A stretch of 64,000 nt of DNA from Escherichia phage vB_Eco_QOTSP, in the sequence record OY720014; one strand, given 5' to 3'. The position numbers were made by a program, and so were the translations under genes. How positions within the stretch are numbered: position 1 is the stretch's first letter; every line of letters starts with the position of its first letter. The notes under the pieces are model-generated. The model saw nothing but the letters and a program-made list of their open reading frames with translations. It searched no databases and was not told where the DNA came from. Positions 19,176-20,769 of the stretch are shown here, in pieces.

Positions 19176-19248
19176 TGGGAATTAGCCAAGTTGGTAAGGC
19201 ACTGGATTTTGATTCCAGGATGCAAAGGTTCGAGTCCTTTATTCCCAG
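19176..19248 (+). tRNA. tRNA-Gln (anticodon UUG)
   Basis: Cloverleaf: acceptor tgggaat/attccca, anticodon loop ttTTGat, T-loop TTCGAGT; CCA not encoded. Confidence 0.85.
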
Positions 19249-19249
19249 C

Positions 19250-19336
19250 GCGAGAATGGTCAAATTGGTAAAGGCACAGCACTTAAAATGCTGCGGAATG
19301 ATTTCCTTGTGGGTTCGAGTCCCACTTCTCGCACCA
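19250..19336 (+). tRNA. tRNA-Leu (anticodon UAA), long variable arm
   Basis: Acceptor gcgagaa/ttctcgc, anticodon loop ctTAAaa, long variable arm, encoded CCA. Confidence 0.85.
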
Positions 19337-19341
19337 AATTT

Positions 19342-19415
19342 GCGGATATCGTATAATGGTATTACCTCAGACTTCCAATCTGATGATGTGAGTTCGATTC
19401 TCATTATCCGCTCCA
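19342..19415 (+). tRNA. tRNA-Gly (anticodon UCC)
   Basis: Acceptor gcggata/tatccgc, anticodon loop ctTCCaa, T-loop TTCGATT, encoded CCA. Confidence 0.85.
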
Positions 19416-19461
19416 ATTTATGACTCGTCGTGAGACGCTCAGTTCTTTATTAGGGACTGAT

Positions 19462-20070
19462 ATGCATTTTTATCTTTATAAAATAACAAATAAAATTAAT
19501 AATAAAATTTATATTGGTGTGCATTCTACCGAAAATTTAGATGATGGATATATGGGTTCTGGTAAATTATTAAAAAGAGCCCAAGATAAATATGGTATAG
19601 AAAATTTTTCTAAAGAAATATTAGAGTATTTTGACGATAAAGAATCTATGCTTGAAGCCGAGAAAAATATTGTCACAGAAGAGTTTTTAAATAGACCAGA
19701 TGTGTATAATTTAAAACTTGGAGGTGAAGGTGGATGGGATCATATAAATAATTATCCTATGACAGATCAGCAACGCGAATTAATTTCATTGGGTGTTAAA
19801 AAGGCGCATTCTAACGGAAAATTAAAAGGATGGTCTTCAAATGGATTAATGAAGAATGGCTTTGCTGGTAAAACTCATTCTCAAGAAGCTAAACGTAAAA
19901 TAGCAAAAGCAAACGAAGCAAAAGTTTCTGCGGATGAAAGAAAAAGAAGAATAGAAATTTCTAAATTATATGATTTTTCTAAACGTGGCGAATTGTCTAA
20001 ATATGCTAAGCATATTGGCGTAAGTCATACTCAAGCAAAAAGAATTCTAAATCAAATTAACAATATATAA
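19462..20070 (+). CDS. GIY-YIG homing endonuclease (SegB-like), inside the tRNA cluster
   Basis: ORF track 19420..20070; N-terminal YLYKITNKINNKIYIGVH ... GYMGSG is the GIY-YIG motif; likely start at M15 (19462). Confidence 0.8.
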   Translation: MHFYLYKITNKINNKIYIGVHSTENLDDGYMGSGKLLKRAQDKYGIENFSKEILEYFDDKESMLEAEKNIVTEEFLNRPDVYNLKLGGEGGWDHINNYPMTDQQRELISLGVKKAHSNGKLKGWSSNGLMKNGFAGKTHSQEAKRKIAKANEAKVSADERKRRIEISKLYDFSKRGELSKYAKHIGVSHTQAKRILNQINNI

Positions 20071-20076
20071 ATATTT

Positions 20077-20166
20077 GGAGGCGTGGCAGAGTGGTTTAAT
20101 GCACCGGTCTTGAAAACCGGCAGTCGCTCCGGCGACTCATAGGTTCAAATCCTATCGCCTCCGCCA
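20077..20166 (+). tRNA. tRNA-Ser (anticodon UGA), long variable arm
   Basis: Acceptor ggaggcg/cgcctcc, anticodon loop ctTGAaa, T-loop TTCAAAT, encoded CCA. Confidence 0.85.
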
Positions 20167-20172
20167 GTTTTT

Positions 20173-20248
20173 GCTGATTTAGCTCAGTAGGTAGAGCACC
20201 TCACTTGTAATGAGGACGTCGGCGGTTCGATTCCGTCAATCAGCACCA
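20173..20248 (+). tRNA. tRNA-Thr (anticodon UGU)
   Basis: Acceptor gctgatt/aatcagc, anticodon loop ctTGTaa, T-loop TTCGATT, encoded CCA. Confidence 0.85.
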
Positions 20249-20249
20249 A

Positions 20250-20324
20250 GGCCCTGTAGCTGGAAGGTTCAAGCAAGCGACTCATAATCGCCAGATGGTG
20301 GTTCAATTCCACCCAGGGCCACCA
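20250..20324 (+). tRNA. tRNA with anticodon CAU (Ile via lysidine by analogy with T4, or Met)
   Basis: Acceptor ggccctg/cagggcc, anticodon loop ctCATaa, T-loop TTCAATT, encoded CCA. Confidence 0.75.
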
Positions 20325-20333
20325 AATTAATTT

Positions 20334-20420
20334 GGGGAGTTATCCCGTAGAGGTAGCGGTGTGGACTGTAAATTCATTGTCATTGCGACTCGGGTGGTTC
20401 GACTCCACCACTCCCCACCA
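20334..20420 (+). tRNA. tRNA-Tyr (anticodon GUA), long variable arm
   Basis: Acceptor ggggagt/actcccc, anticodon loop ctGTAaa, variable arm gtc-attgc-gac, T-arm ggtgg-TTCGACT-ccacc; D-arm region atypical. Confidence 0.65.
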
Positions 20421-20424
20421 ATTT

Positions 20425-20499
20425 GGATGTGTAGCTCAATGGCAGAGCGATCGCCTGTTAAGCGATTGGTTATAGGTTCGAATCCTATCACGTCCGCCA
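20425..20499 (+). tRNA. tRNA-Asn (anticodon GUU)
   Basis: Acceptor ggatgtg/cacgtcc, anticodon loop ctGTTaa, T-loop TTCGAAT, encoded CCA. Confidence 0.8.
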
Positions 20500-20613
20500 A
20501 ATTTGTGACAACTGTCACATTAATATCTACTTGACGCGATTATAGGGGTTGAACTGATCACTCTTCTCTTAATTTCGTGTGAAGACATCTTGATTGTTGG
20601 AGTAGGTATTAAT

Positions 20614-20689
20614 GTGGCCGTAGTTCAGTTGGTAGAACTCGAGATTGTGATTCTCGTAGTCATGGGTTCGACTCCCATCGGTCACCCCA
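20614..20689 (+). tRNA. tRNA-His (anticodon GUG)
   Basis: Acceptor gtggccg/cggtcac, anticodon loop ttGTGat, T-loop TTCGACT, encoded CCA. Confidence 0.8.
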
Positions 20690-20693
20690 ATTA

Positions 20694-20769
20694 CGGGGCA
20701 TAGCTCAGAAGGAAGAGCAAGGACCTTCTAAGTCCTAGGTCGTAGGTTCGATCCCTACTGCCTCGACCA
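20694..20769 (+). tRNA. tRNA-Arg (anticodon UCU)
   Basis: Acceptor cggggca/tgcctcg, anticodon loop ctTCTaa, T-loop TTCGATC, encoded CCA. Confidence 0.8.

Follow-up and report, generated by a model that had tools for sequence, protein, structure and literature searches.

Organization of the tRNA locus

Running ARAGORN over the whole 64-kb stretch of DNA analysed here (the window), we found exactly ten tRNA genes, all on the + strand and each with a cloverleaf (Table 1). Gene for gene, their coordinates and anticodons are those listed in an earlier note on this DNA. Nine of the ten also pass the gathering threshold of the Rfam tRNA model RF00005 (29 bits), with scores of 59-74 bits and E values of 1e-10 to 1e-14. 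The locus very probably encodes ten functional tRNAs, for Gln, Leu, Gly, Ser, Thr, Ile2(CAU), Tyr, Asn, His and Arg. An encoded CCA end is present in all of these genes except tRNA-Gln.

Table 1. Positions in the window of the genes and other features at the tRNA locus.
Feature	Position	Strand	Evidence or remark
tRNA-Gln (UUG)	19176..19249	+	ARAGORN; RF00005 67.4 bits; 65/73 identical to T4 tRNA-Gln
tRNA-Leu (UAA), class II	19250..19336	+	ARAGORN; 59.3 bits; 87/87 identical to T4
tRNA-Gly (UCC)	19342..19415	+	ARAGORN; 65.8 bits; 74/74 identical to T4
9-bp hairpin in seg leader, burying the GGGA Shine-Dalgarno before ATG 19462	19439..19460	+	terminator-like scan
SegB-like GIY-YIG homing endonuclease gene	19462..20070	+	Pfam PF01541; phrog_314; T4/T6 SegB alignment
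tRNA-Ser (UGA), class II	20077..20166	+	ARAGORN; 62.6 bits; 87/87 identical to T4
tRNA-Thr (UGU)	20173..20248	+	ARAGORN; 73.5 bits; 75/76 identical to T4
tRNA-Ile2 type (CAU anticodon)	20250..20324	+	ARAGORN label Met; best E. coli chromosomal matches tRNA-Ile
tRNA-Tyr (GUA), class II	20334..20420	+	ARAGORN; 87/87 identical to T6 tRNA-Tyr
tRNA-Asn (GUU)	20425..20499	+	ARAGORN; 74.1 bits
Inverted repeat, 6+6	20504..20519	+	left edge of element + His cassette
Pre-His element, conserved 95-nt three-way-junction RNA	20519..20613	+	fold z; covariation; model R1
tRNA-His (GUG), encoded CCA	20614..20689	+	ARAGORN; 65.1 bits; E. coli hisR comparison
tRNA-Arg (UCU)	20694..20769	+	ARAGORN; 66.1 bits; 47/75 identical to T4
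116-aa ORF between Arg and rnaD	20788..21138	+	phrog_3355, E=7e-52
rnaD (species 2 RNA) homolog	21135..21253 (ends approximate, from T4 alignment)	+	T4 identity
rnaC (species 1 RNA) homolog	21260..21398 (ends approximate)	+	T4 identity
Intrinsic-terminator-like hairpin, 10 bp (7 G-C), then T run	21448..21471	+	terminator-like scan

The corresponding region of T4 (NC_000866, 70.9-72.5 kb) reads Gln-Leu-Gly-Pro-Ser-Thr-Ile-segB-Arg-rnaD-rnaC, that is, eight tRNAs including Pro together with rnaC and rnaD, in agreement with the earlier note. Both loci lie between trna.2 and e.8 and share identical Leu, Gly and Ser genes and a SegB-type nuclease domain. Comparison with the T4 reference bears out the absence of Pro and the presence of Tyr, Asn and His in our phage. 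T4, in contrast, has Pro, lacks Tyr, Asn, the structured element described below and His, carries segB between Ile and Arg, has different Ile and Arg alleles and has no ORF between Arg and rnaD; the Arg allele found here matches that of T2. T2 shares with our phage the order Ile-Tyr-Asn-Arg and the same 116-aa ORF, but it lacks Thr, a seg gene and the cassette formed by the element and tRNA-His, so that only 4 nt separate its Asn and Arg genes. T6 agrees with our phage in its tRNA-Tyr, which is identical, and in the seg leader and nuclease domain, but it is without Pro, Ser, Asn and His, and its segB follows Tyr. The T2L cluster with Tyr and Asn was published by Brok-Volchanskaya et al. 2008 (PMC2330249), and the tRNA-Tyr of T6 was characterised by Chihara et al. 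2026 (PMC13096335).

The suggestion that such a complement is unusual did not survive comparison with deposited genomes, since dozens of Tequatrovirus records, RB18 among them, annotate the cluster in just this arrangement. The window is ~99% identical to Tequatrovirus genomes of the AR1/RB18/KIT03 type, in which these ten tRNAs and the endonuclease are all annotated. Over positions 19100-20800, RB18, AR1, KIT03 and vB_Eco_EL (MH553563, AP011113, AP018932 and OZ034682) show 98.9-99.5% nucleotide identity to our phage and essentially no difference in organization: the ten tRNAs in order, the endonuclease between Gly and Ser and a 114-nt gap between Asn and His, which their records leave unannotated. 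These records name the CAU tRNA Ile or Met and the endonuclease segB, segD or 'homing endonuclease', the RB18 entry having all ten tRNAs and calling its endonuclease 'segB, C-terminus divergent'. Identity to vB_Eco_EL is 99.5%, and the query is covered to 80% or more by 53 records. The tRNA cluster is already known and in itself adds nothing new; very probably, what we see here is a Tequatrovirus (T-even) tRNA operon in the AR1/RB18/KIT03 arrangement, and we hold the mosaic account given below with the same high confidence.

By analogy with T4, the tRNAs would be co-transcribed in a polycistronic precursor and then excised by RNases of the host, RNase P among them. The seven tRNAs common to T4 would be readers of A-ending codons, and the three additional ones, Tyr-GUA, Asn-GUU and His-GUG, single-isoacceptor readers of NAY codons.

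A CAU tRNA of predicted Ile2 type and a tRNA-Tyr identical to that of T6

The CAU tRNA is labelled Met by ARAGORN, and the records of T6, T2 and other phages in GenBank annotate a tRNA-Met. The closest genes on the E. coli chromosome argue against this label: they are annotated as tRNA-Ile with a CAT anticodon (81.6% over the full length), their acceptor stems are near-identical to that of the phage gene, and the anticodon stem-loop, GCGACUCAUAAUCGC, is the same in both. Moreover, the phage gene occupies the slot of T4 tRNA-Ile, of which it is a different allele (47/74 identical), and the RB18 annotation is Ile. Because it has a G1-C72 pair, the tRNA is not an initiator. Judged by these sequence features, it is of the tRNA-Ile2 type, predicted to read AUA, and not a tRNA-Met; its C34 is presumed to be lysidine-modified.

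The tRNA-Tyr gene is the one that falls below the RF00005 gathering threshold, its best match in the clan being to tRNA-Sec, with 30.9 bits where 47 would be needed. The earlier note had described its D-arm region as atypical. This was right in so far as the Rfam score fails, but the D arm itself is canonical (CCGU/GCGG stem, AGAGGUA loop), and the oddity lies in the connector between the acceptor stem and the D stem, which has 4 nt (UAUC) instead of the 2 nt of a normal tRNA; among homologs it has 4-5 nt. Rejection by a covariance model, which that note had named as grounds for abandoning the Tyr assignment, is borne out in part, by RF00005 at its gathering threshold; ARAGORN accepts the gene. 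The rejection is outweighed because the gene is identical to the T6 tRNA-Tyr, which is expressed, as seen by northern blot and tRF-seq, and which rescues T6 from the Septu defence, although it has been described as relatively unstable (PMC13096335). Among homologs, compensatory changes preserve the stems, with covariation in the anticodon, variable and T stems. A joint reading, in which the Tyr gene is a non-functional pseudo-tRNA and the CAU tRNA an elongator tRNA-Met, could appeal to the sub-threshold Rfam score and to the Met labels, but the covarying stems, the expressed and phenotype-giving T6 counterpart and the likeness to E. coli tRNA-Ile make it very improbable. As a functional tRNA, tRNA-Tyr at least would replenish tRNA destroyed by host defences (Septu, retron-Eco7), and it belongs to a class, by now documented, of phage tRNAs that stand in for those of the host after cleavage by defence nucleases.

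A chimeric homing endonuclease gene in place of tRNA-Pro

The gene between Gly and Ser that had been taken for a homing endonuclease is one, with a GIY-YIG domain (PF01541, 26.8 bits, cut-off 22.6; NUMOD3 is weak) and a match to phrog_314 (E=2e-54). It is a free-standing gene embedded among tRNA genes at the Gly/Ser junction. The reading frame is open from 19420, and the start is probably at 19462, since this codon aligns with M1 of T4 and T6 SegB. The protein has an N-terminal nuclease domain of SegB type, 83-84% identical to T4 and T6 SegB over aa 15-~134 only (~117-120 aa); at the DNA level, the identity to T4 is 99.3% over 275 nt. Beyond ~aa 134, BLASTP comparison with T4 and T6 SegB gives no similarity; the DNA-binding C-terminal region of SegB is lacking, and the C-terminal ~100 aa match endonucleases of another set, an HNH enzyme among them. 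A 46-nt leader, which includes the hairpin listed in Table 1, also precedes T6 segB. As judged from the blast boundaries against T4, the segment 19421-20075 exactly replaces tRNA-Pro. An 11-tRNA allele with Pro and without a seg gene also exists.

SegB cleaves tRNA genes in the TψC region, with a preference for tRNA-Asn of T2L, and the T2L region is replaced when it homes (PMC2330249). Site-specific cleavage of tRNA genes and homing in mixed infection have been shown for T4 and T6 SegB only (PMC2330249, PMC13096335). Enzymes of this type would cut inside tRNA genes and convert the flanking DNA. The complement found here would then differ from that of T4 because SegB-type homing endonucleases have turned the locus into a mosaic; the differences are cassette swaps. 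In our phage, a SegB with a swapped C-terminal DNA-binding domain would have displaced precisely tRNA-Pro; in T4, where segB sits at Ile/Arg, and in T6, where it sits at Tyr/Arg, Tyr, Asn and His genes would have been displaced. The cluster is in this respect a textbook case of homing endonucleases reshuffling the tRNA genes of T-even phages. The tRNA-Asn gene of our phage is homologous to the T2L gene that SegB prefers for cleavage (PMC2330249).

The downstream part of the operon

The small stable RNAs of T4, which had seemed to be missing, are present: homologs of rnaD and rnaC lie at about 21135-21398, outside the interval considered in the earlier note. Together they show 98% identity to T4, and the rnaC homolog contains a T-arm-like GGUUCGAAUCC hairpin (fold z=-4.2). 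They are separated from tRNA-Arg by the 116-aa ORF, which is present in T2 and RB18 and absent in T4. The hairpin at 21448-21471 falls within the block homologous to T4 and is likely the end of the tRNA and stable-RNA transcription unit. The operon would run through the ORF and rnaD/rnaC to this terminator-like hairpin, near 21450-21471.

A tRNA-His without an encoded G-1

The phage tRNA-His has the GUG anticodon and the C73 discriminator expected of a bacterial-type tRNA-His. The genome-encoded G at position -1 is absent, however: the phage has a T (20613) where E. coli hisR has a G, and a T is found at this position in all Tevenvirinae copies. E. coli HisRS normally requires G-1, and charging of the phage tRNA is therefore uncertain; how a tRNA-His without G-1 is charged in E. 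coli is a testable question. A literature search for phage tRNA-His lacking G-1, in which T-even RNA work of the 1970s-80s was thinly covered, returned nothing relevant.

A conserved structured RNA precedes tRNA-His

The earlier note had drawn attention to a 114-nt gap between Asn and His, with a palindrome in it, as a possible place for a small RNA or processing site. The gap exists (20500-20613), and a conserved structured RNA indeed lies in it. The palindrome is not a perfect one but a 6+6 inverted repeat with a 4-nt loop, TGTGAC-AACT-GTCACA (20504-20519). This repeat is the least informative part of the spacer; the conserved element begins where the repeat stops, and other genera share only its right arm.

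The element, which we call the pre-His element, consists of a 14-bp helix (P1), a variable hairpin (P2) and a 4-bp stem with a conserved 7-nt loop, UCWUGAU (P3). P1 closes at position -1 of tRNA-His and covers positions -1 to -14 of pre-tRNA-His. The fold has a z score of -4.4, and none of 200 shuffled sequences folded as well (0/200). In the 16 distinct sequences available, which come from related phages, all Tevenvirinae, and represent few independent events, P1 is 99% paired (slid registers, 27-54%) despite eight variable positions, with three double-sided and five one-sided changes, and the A:U pair at -95/-1 is invariant (16/16). RNAalifold finds P1 and P3 independently, 9 of the 26 pairs being compensatory. 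P2, in contrast, is poorly conserved: it is 79-82% paired at its base, and its interior is replaced wholesale between genera. Numerous pairs are G·U, and the opposite strand would have A·C mismatches in their place; the structure is therefore one of the sense RNA strand.

In four genera of Tevenvirinae (Tequatro-, Karam-, Jiaoda- and Winklervirus) and in an unclassified relative, phage Ursula, tRNA-His is preceded by the element. The tRNA upstream of it differs among these genera, whereas its position relative to G+1 of tRNA-His is fixed to the nucleotide in every one of them. Across genera it is 82-90% conserved, matching tRNA-His itself, while the neighbouring genes differ. As seen from the comparison with T2, the element and tRNA-His are gained or lost together as a cassette of ~190 nt; in phage 236Ecol005PP, the element is kept at 93% identity after deletion of the His gene. 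The spacer and its flanks are matched in 398 phage records. Our model of the element, R1, has one match per locus, always 5' of His, and a single match, on the sense strand, in the window. Three pattern scans of IMG/VR and one metagenome scan, in which several of the matches were due to chance, added four new variants and otherwise near-identical copies.

Rfam 15 has no match to 20500-20613, even at E<=10 with permissive filters, and a search for a described RNA at the pre-His position found none of relevance in a literature that covers the T-even RNA work of the 1970s-80s thinly. The element is thus a conserved structured RNA that is apparently undescribed and that has been left unannotated in hundreds of deposited T4-like genomes. 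Several known kinds of element were considered and rejected. Homology to T4 rnaC/rnaD is contradicted by the lack of a blast match, by the true homologs lying 500 nt downstream and by the failure of R1 to match anything else in the window. A degenerate tRNA, known ribozyme or riboswitch would be expected to elicit an ARAGORN call or an Rfam match at E<=10, and neither was obtained. The junctions of the element (1 nt, 3 nt and 1 nt) do not, by eye, fit a hammerhead core. A dispersed repeat filling the gaps of tRNA arrays is at odds with one copy per locus. A kissing interaction between the P2 and P3 loops, both of which contain UCAUGA in the Metamorpho type of the element, is by eye not conserved in Winklervirus or Ursula. 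Finally, compensation for the missing G-1 is not supported as its role, since tRNA-His genes of Aeromonas phage and mycobacteriophage origin, and metagenomic arrays, likewise have T at -1 but lack the element.

Possible roles of the pre-His element

We propose, with slightly less than even confidence, that the element is a new functional class of RNA of enterobacterial T4-like phages, co-mobilised with a tRNA-His lacking G-1 and serving either as a structured leader that occupies the RNase P site and controls maturation of tRNA-His or, alternatively, as a new stable phage sRNA. The first of these roles is the one we tentatively favour. On the modelled fold, the element may act in cis, P1 pairing positions -1 to -14 of pre-tRNA-His and masking the RNase P site, so that 5' maturation of tRNA-His would be timed or gated. 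By analogy with T4, RNase P cleavage would afterwards free the element as a blunt-ended, exonuclease-resistant small RNA of ~95-115 nt that might accumulate. A helix that abuts the 5' end of a tRNA blocks E. coli RNase P (PMC7897497), and P1 pairs the proximal 5' leader right up to the cleavage site, as a sequestor helix does. The synthetic RNase P riboswitch of Ender et al. 2021 (PMC7897497) likewise places a helix, rich in G·U and A-U pairs, against the tRNA 5' end to sequester the proximal leader; it is engineered and theophylline-controlled, and its likeness to the natural element is one of architecture only. If the element gates RNase P, it would be the natural counterpart of a device so far found only in synthetic biology, and it would give the T4 species 1 and 2 RNAs a tractable relative. 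It would nevertheless seem odd for a constitutively inhibitory leader to be conserved, the element is dispensed with by other phage tRNA-His genes that have T at -1, and its retention in 236Ecol005PP after the loss of His fits a His-independent role at least as well.

Such an independent role would be that of a free-standing stable sRNA that acts in trans and joins the T4 species 1 and 2 RNAs as a third of their kind, for which the neighbouring tRNA serves only in 3'-end formation by RNase P and to which it is linked through adjacency. The terminal 14-bp helix would shield both of its ends from exonucleases. The conserved loop of P3 and the persistence of the element without tRNA-His in 236Ecol005PP are consistent with this, and T-even tRNA operons already hold such RNAs in rnaC and rnaD. 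These two are the nearest analogues in kind, being structured, ~100-140 nt long and situated within the tRNA operon next to a tRNA gene. However, they share neither sequence nor model similarity with the element, and rnaD lies 3' of tRNA-Arg, whereas the element precedes a tRNA whose leader it pairs. The swapping of the P2 interior between genera is not usually seen in an RNA that acts in trans on a defined target, and the position fixed to the nucleotide relative to G+1 of tRNA-His also speaks against this reading. We consider a role purely in trans rather unlikely.

It is improbable that the spacer is neutral or a decayed relic, such as a degenerate tRNA gene or a recombination leftover, whose structure merely reflects shared ancestry. 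The narrow sample, all Tevenvirinae with few independent substitutions behind the covariation, leaves some room for this, and the way P3 runs straight into the 3' strand of P1 loosely recalls the passage from a T arm to the 3' strand of the acceptor. However, the T-loop consensus is absent from the P3 loop, neither ARAGORN nor RF00005 (even at E<=10) detects a tRNA signal, and a relic would hardly be as conserved across genera as tRNA-His among differing neighbours or keep P1 paired, in contrast to the slid controls, across its variable positions.

Still less probable is a function of the spacer as DNA, with the inverted repeat as the operative part, either as an internal promoter for His-Arg-ORF-rnaD-rnaC or as an endonuclease recognition or recombination site. 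The repeat does lie exactly at the left junction of the cassette, its loop AACT is inverted to AGTT in a related phage, as expected of a DNA hairpin flip, and older descriptions of T4 divide its tRNA genes into two subclusters. Yet in 114 nt a 6+6 repeat is only a mild surprise, genera other than Tequatrovirus lack its left arm, the many G·U pairs point to selection on the sense RNA, a sigma-70 scan of 20500-20613 gave no promoter-like site on the + strand and overall counts equal to shuffled expectation, and the T4 late-promoter motif (TATAAATA) is not seen in the spacer.

A thermodynamic fold of the Asn-to-Arg precursor predicts an extension of P1 into the 5' strand of the tRNA-His acceptor stem; minimum free energy folding misfolds tRNAs, and the His side of the predicted extension is invariant, so that covariation has no bearing on it. 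The complementary 5 nt occur in two versions, GUCAC and GCCAA.

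A mosaic T-even tRNA operon

ARAGORN, run on the whole 64-kb window, called exactly ten tRNA genes, all on the + strand, and reproduced every coordinate and anticodon that an earlier note had assigned by hand-folding. Nine of the ten exceed the gathering score of the Rfam tRNA model (59-74 bits). The sole gene without an encoded CCA is tRNA-Gln, which abuts tRNA-Leu with no spacer; the T4 Gln-Leu pair is alike. The ORF between Gly and Ser does encode a GIY-YIG endonuclease, and the T4 reference record agrees with the note in having eight tRNAs, including Pro, and two small stable RNAs (rnaC and rnaD). 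Both RNAs are present here too, at 98% identity to T4, beyond the interval considered in the note, and a terminator-like hairpin lies downstream of them. The complement is not remarkable: the cluster is a mosaic T-even tRNA operon that is already known and annotated, since near-identical genomes have been deposited. Among deposited phage genomes, Megablast matched 944 records at least in part, and in 53 a single place accounts for 80% of the query or more; vB_Eco_EL, CrRp10, KIT03, AR1, RB18 and others are 98.9-99.5% identical across the full 1.7 kb. The RB18 record lists the same ten tRNAs in identical order, labels the CAU tRNA as Ile and annotates "segB, C-terminus divergent".

The order of transcription is Gln-Leu-Gly-Pro-Ser-Thr-Ile-(segB)-Arg-rnaD-rnaC in T4, Gln-Leu-Gly-Thr-Ile-Tyr-(segB)-Arg in T6 and Gln-Leu-Gly-Pro-Ser-(ORF)-Ile-Tyr-Asn-Arg-ORF116 in T2. 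A Tequatrovirus from IMG/VR (L009) carries the window's cluster in an 11-tRNA form that includes Pro and has no endonuclease gene. T4 was compared with the window by blast and by pairwise identities. Leu, Gly and Ser match T4 at every position, Thr at 75/76 and Gln at 65/73, whereas the CAU tRNA (47/74) and Arg (47/75) are different alleles. The 80 nt of T4 that hold tRNA-Pro are exactly replaced by a segment with the endonuclease gene. Ahead of rnaD and rnaC, the window has a 116-aa ORF (phrog_3355) that is found in T2 but not in T4. Two further insertions relative to T4 lie upstream of the cluster.

Coordinates of the features described, in the window unless another sequence is named
Feature	Sequence	Position
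First upstream insertion		17768-18196
ORF in first insertion (126 aa)		17819-18199
Second upstream insertion		18475-19069
ORF in second insertion		18486-18803
ORF in second insertion (phrog_2290)		18808-19089
tRNA-Gln, site without CCA		19241-19250
Replacement of T4 tRNA-Pro segment		19421-20075
seg leader		19421-19461
Shine-Dalgarno hairpin		19439-19460
Endonuclease gene		19462-20070
C-terminal module		19750-20067
CAU tRNA		20250-20324
tRNA-Tyr		20334-20420
tRNA-Asn		20425-20499
Extra segment relative to T2		~20503-20692
Inverted repeat		20504-20519
Pre-His element		20519-20613
tRNA-His		20614-20689 (20613-20689 with -1)
tRNA-Arg		20694-20769
rnaD and rnaC		~21135-21398
Terminator-like hairpin		21448-21471
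tRNA-Tyr	Entb_43 (L003)	437-524
96-nt 'tRNA-Phe'	Entb_43 (L003)	1904-1999
Inverted repeat	236Ecol005PP (L007)	~1522-1537
HNH nuclease fusion	Ursula (L015)	117-596
Asn-Tyr-Thr-Ser cluster	pEC881_2 (L030)	2421-3247
ORF in tRNA cluster	T2 (L039)	2221-2622

The Tyr and CAU tRNAs and the choice of extra tRNAs

The Tyr candidate falls below the Rfam tRNA gathering score; within the clan it scores best with tRNA-Sec (30.9 bits), under that family's own cut-off. The gene is indeed atypical, though not in the D-arm, where the oddity had been placed: the arm is canonical if read CCGU/GCGG with the loop AGAGGUA. It is the connector that is unusual, with 4 nt (UAUC) where normal tRNAs have 2, and this accounts for the weak score under the general model. 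The gene is identical at 87/87 positions to T6 tRNA-Tyr, which has been seen by northern blot and tRF-seq and whose overexpression rescues T6 from Septu (PMC13096335). In homologs from Jiaodavirus, Karamvirus and E. coli plasmids, the anticodon stem, variable arm and T stem are kept through compensatory changes, in the anticodon stem U-A to C-G and G-C to A-U. The Entb_43 copy, whose acceptor-D connector is 5 nt long, was missed by ARAGORN and is annotated in its record by tRNAscan-SE; ARAGORN also called an unannotated 'tRNA-Phe' there. With blastn, no Tyr-like gene was found on the E. coli chromosome; copies of 80-95% identity (best 92%) turned up in 272 plasmid records of E. coli, the six listed being 72-112 kb in size. 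In pEC881_2, the single plasmid examined, Tyr belongs to a cluster of tRNA genes with a DNA ligase gene nearby, and on this account the plasmids are likely phage-plasmids.

Among E. coli genes, the CAU tRNA comes closest to those on the chromosome for tRNA-Ile with anticodon CAT, with which it shares the whole anticodon stem-loop and almost the whole acceptor stem. By these sequence features it is of the tRNA-Ile2 type. An initiator tRNA is excluded by G1-C72.

The seven tRNAs that T4 also has serve codons ending in A, which are favoured by an AT-rich phage. The extra three, Tyr, Asn and His, have G34 anticodons for NAY codons, and for each of them the host has a single isoacceptor. Septu and retron-Eco7 are documented to attack tRNA-Tyr, and phage tRNA-Tyr counters this (PMC13096335; see also PMC11555353). 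By analogy, Asn and His may serve against defences in the same way.

The SegB-like endonuclease

From Met-15 (the ATG at 19462), the endonuclease shares 83-84% identity with SegB of T4 and T6 over the GIY-YIG domain; the similarity weakens from about residue 112 and the alignment ends by residue ~131-134. The 46-nt leader ahead of this ATG is the same as that of T6 segB, and in both phages it is preceded by tRNA-CCA followed by ATTT, the tRNA being Tyr in T6 and Gly in the window. The Shine-Dalgarno sequence is buried by a 9-bp hairpin. The RB18 record begins this ORF at 19420, but the probable start is 19462. The enzyme's C-terminal module of ~100 aa is shared with other phages: about 55 Tequatrovirus genomes have it at 95% identity or more (RB51 and RB68 as "truncated SegB-like protein"), Jiaodavirus genomes at ~70% (W15-2 about 1 kb from tRNA-His), phage Ursula at 45%, fused to an HNH nuclease in its tRNA array, and T2 at 41%, in an ORF of its tRNA cluster. 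This distribution suggests a shared DNA-binding domain, swapped among nuclease families and tied to tRNA genes. SegB cleaves tRNA genes where they encode the TψC region, with T2L tRNA-Asn as its preferred target, and the T2L segment from Ser to rnaI is replaced upon SegB homing (PMC2330249); SegB also drives tRNA-Tyr amplification in T6 (PMC13096335). Three seg positions, each with tRNA genes lost at that site, are the outcome expected of SegB-type homing. The domain-swapped enzyme of the window would target the Pro region.

A predicted structured RNA adjoining tRNA-His

What remains of interest in the cluster is an unannotated RNA ahead of tRNA-His, together with the tRNA-His itself, which lacks G-1. 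The 114-nt gap between Asn and His described in the earlier note is there; its "palindrome" is imperfect, a 6+6 inverted repeat (TGTGAC-AACT-GTCACA). In 236Ecol005PP the loop reads AGTT, the reverse complement of AACT, as if the hairpin had been flipped at the DNA level. The spacer folds at -32.7 kcal/mol (z=-4.4; 0/200 shuffles as good) into this small hairpin and a three-way junction, in which a closing helix of 13-14 bp (P1) is joined by a long hairpin (P2) and a short hairpin with a 7-nt loop (P3).

Distant blastn showed that the ~97 nt adjoining tRNA-His are 82-90% kept in Karamvirus and Jiaodavirus phages, where tRNA-Gln instead of Asn lies upstream; in all, 398 phage records gave matches to the spacer with its flanks. 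Further diverged copies occur in Winklervirus, Citrobacter phage Ursula and four IMG/VR contigs, and each folds alone to the same topology despite wholesale replacement of P2. In a MAFFT alignment of ten sequences, pairing in P1 reaches 99.3%, against 26-50% in slid registers; both partners have changed in three P1 pairs and one partner in five. In P3, both partners have changed in two pairs. A covariance-model alignment of 16 distinct sequences gave 99.1% pairing in P1 against 27-54% in slid registers. Without an input structure, RNAalifold recovered P1, P3 and an inner P2 helix, with 9/26 pairs compensatory. Since many pairs are G·U and would be A·C on the other strand, the selected structure lies on the tRNA-sense RNA. 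The covariance model (R1) found one copy per locus, always adjoining tRNA-His, with a single one in the window, and the element has no match among Rfam families. In T2, 4 nt separate Asn from Arg; the ~190 nt extra in the window comprise the inverted repeat, the element and tRNA-His, so element and tRNA were gained or lost jointly.

Possible role of the element

At the end of P1, U-1 of pre-tRNA-His pairs with an invariant A, so that P1 spans -1 to -14; the eight pairs nearest the tRNA are all A-U or G·U. For E. coli RNase P the proximal leader has to be single-stranded, and a helix directly next to the tRNA blocks the enzyme (PMC7897497). We favour a cis-acting leader that would delay or gate 5' maturation of tRNA-His, because of the nucleotide-exact placement by His and the freely replaceable P2. 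RNase P cleavage would then free the element as an RNA that has blunt ends and resists nucleases. The strongest competing reading is a stable RNA acting in trans, a non-homologous analogue of T4 species 1 and 2; it gains support from 236Ecol005PP, in which His is mostly deleted and the element is kept, while the placement and the variable P2 speak for the leader. A neutral relic is less likely given the cross-genus conservation, covariation and G·U pairs, and the same features, with the absence of promoter signals, make a DNA-level site less likely too.

G-1 is a major HisRS identity element. In the window's tRNA-His, C73 and an encoded CCA are present, while position -1 is T; E. coli hisR has G there. 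The element as compensation for the absent G-1 is not supported, as there is no correlation: T at -1 also occurs in phage tRNA-His genes that have no element. T stands at -1 in every phage tRNA-His examined, including all Tevenvirinae copies, an Aeromonas Chrysonvirus copy and mycobacteriophage Bxz1.

Jiaodavirus and Karamvirus arrays (L004, L006, L012, L013 and L003) also leave stretches of 66-253 nt between tRNA genes without annotation. These are 230-253 nt long from Asn to Asp, 128-211 nt from Asp to Met, 96 nt from His to Ser and 66 nt from Ser to Ile. Model R1 had no match in these gaps, which may hold further structured RNAs.
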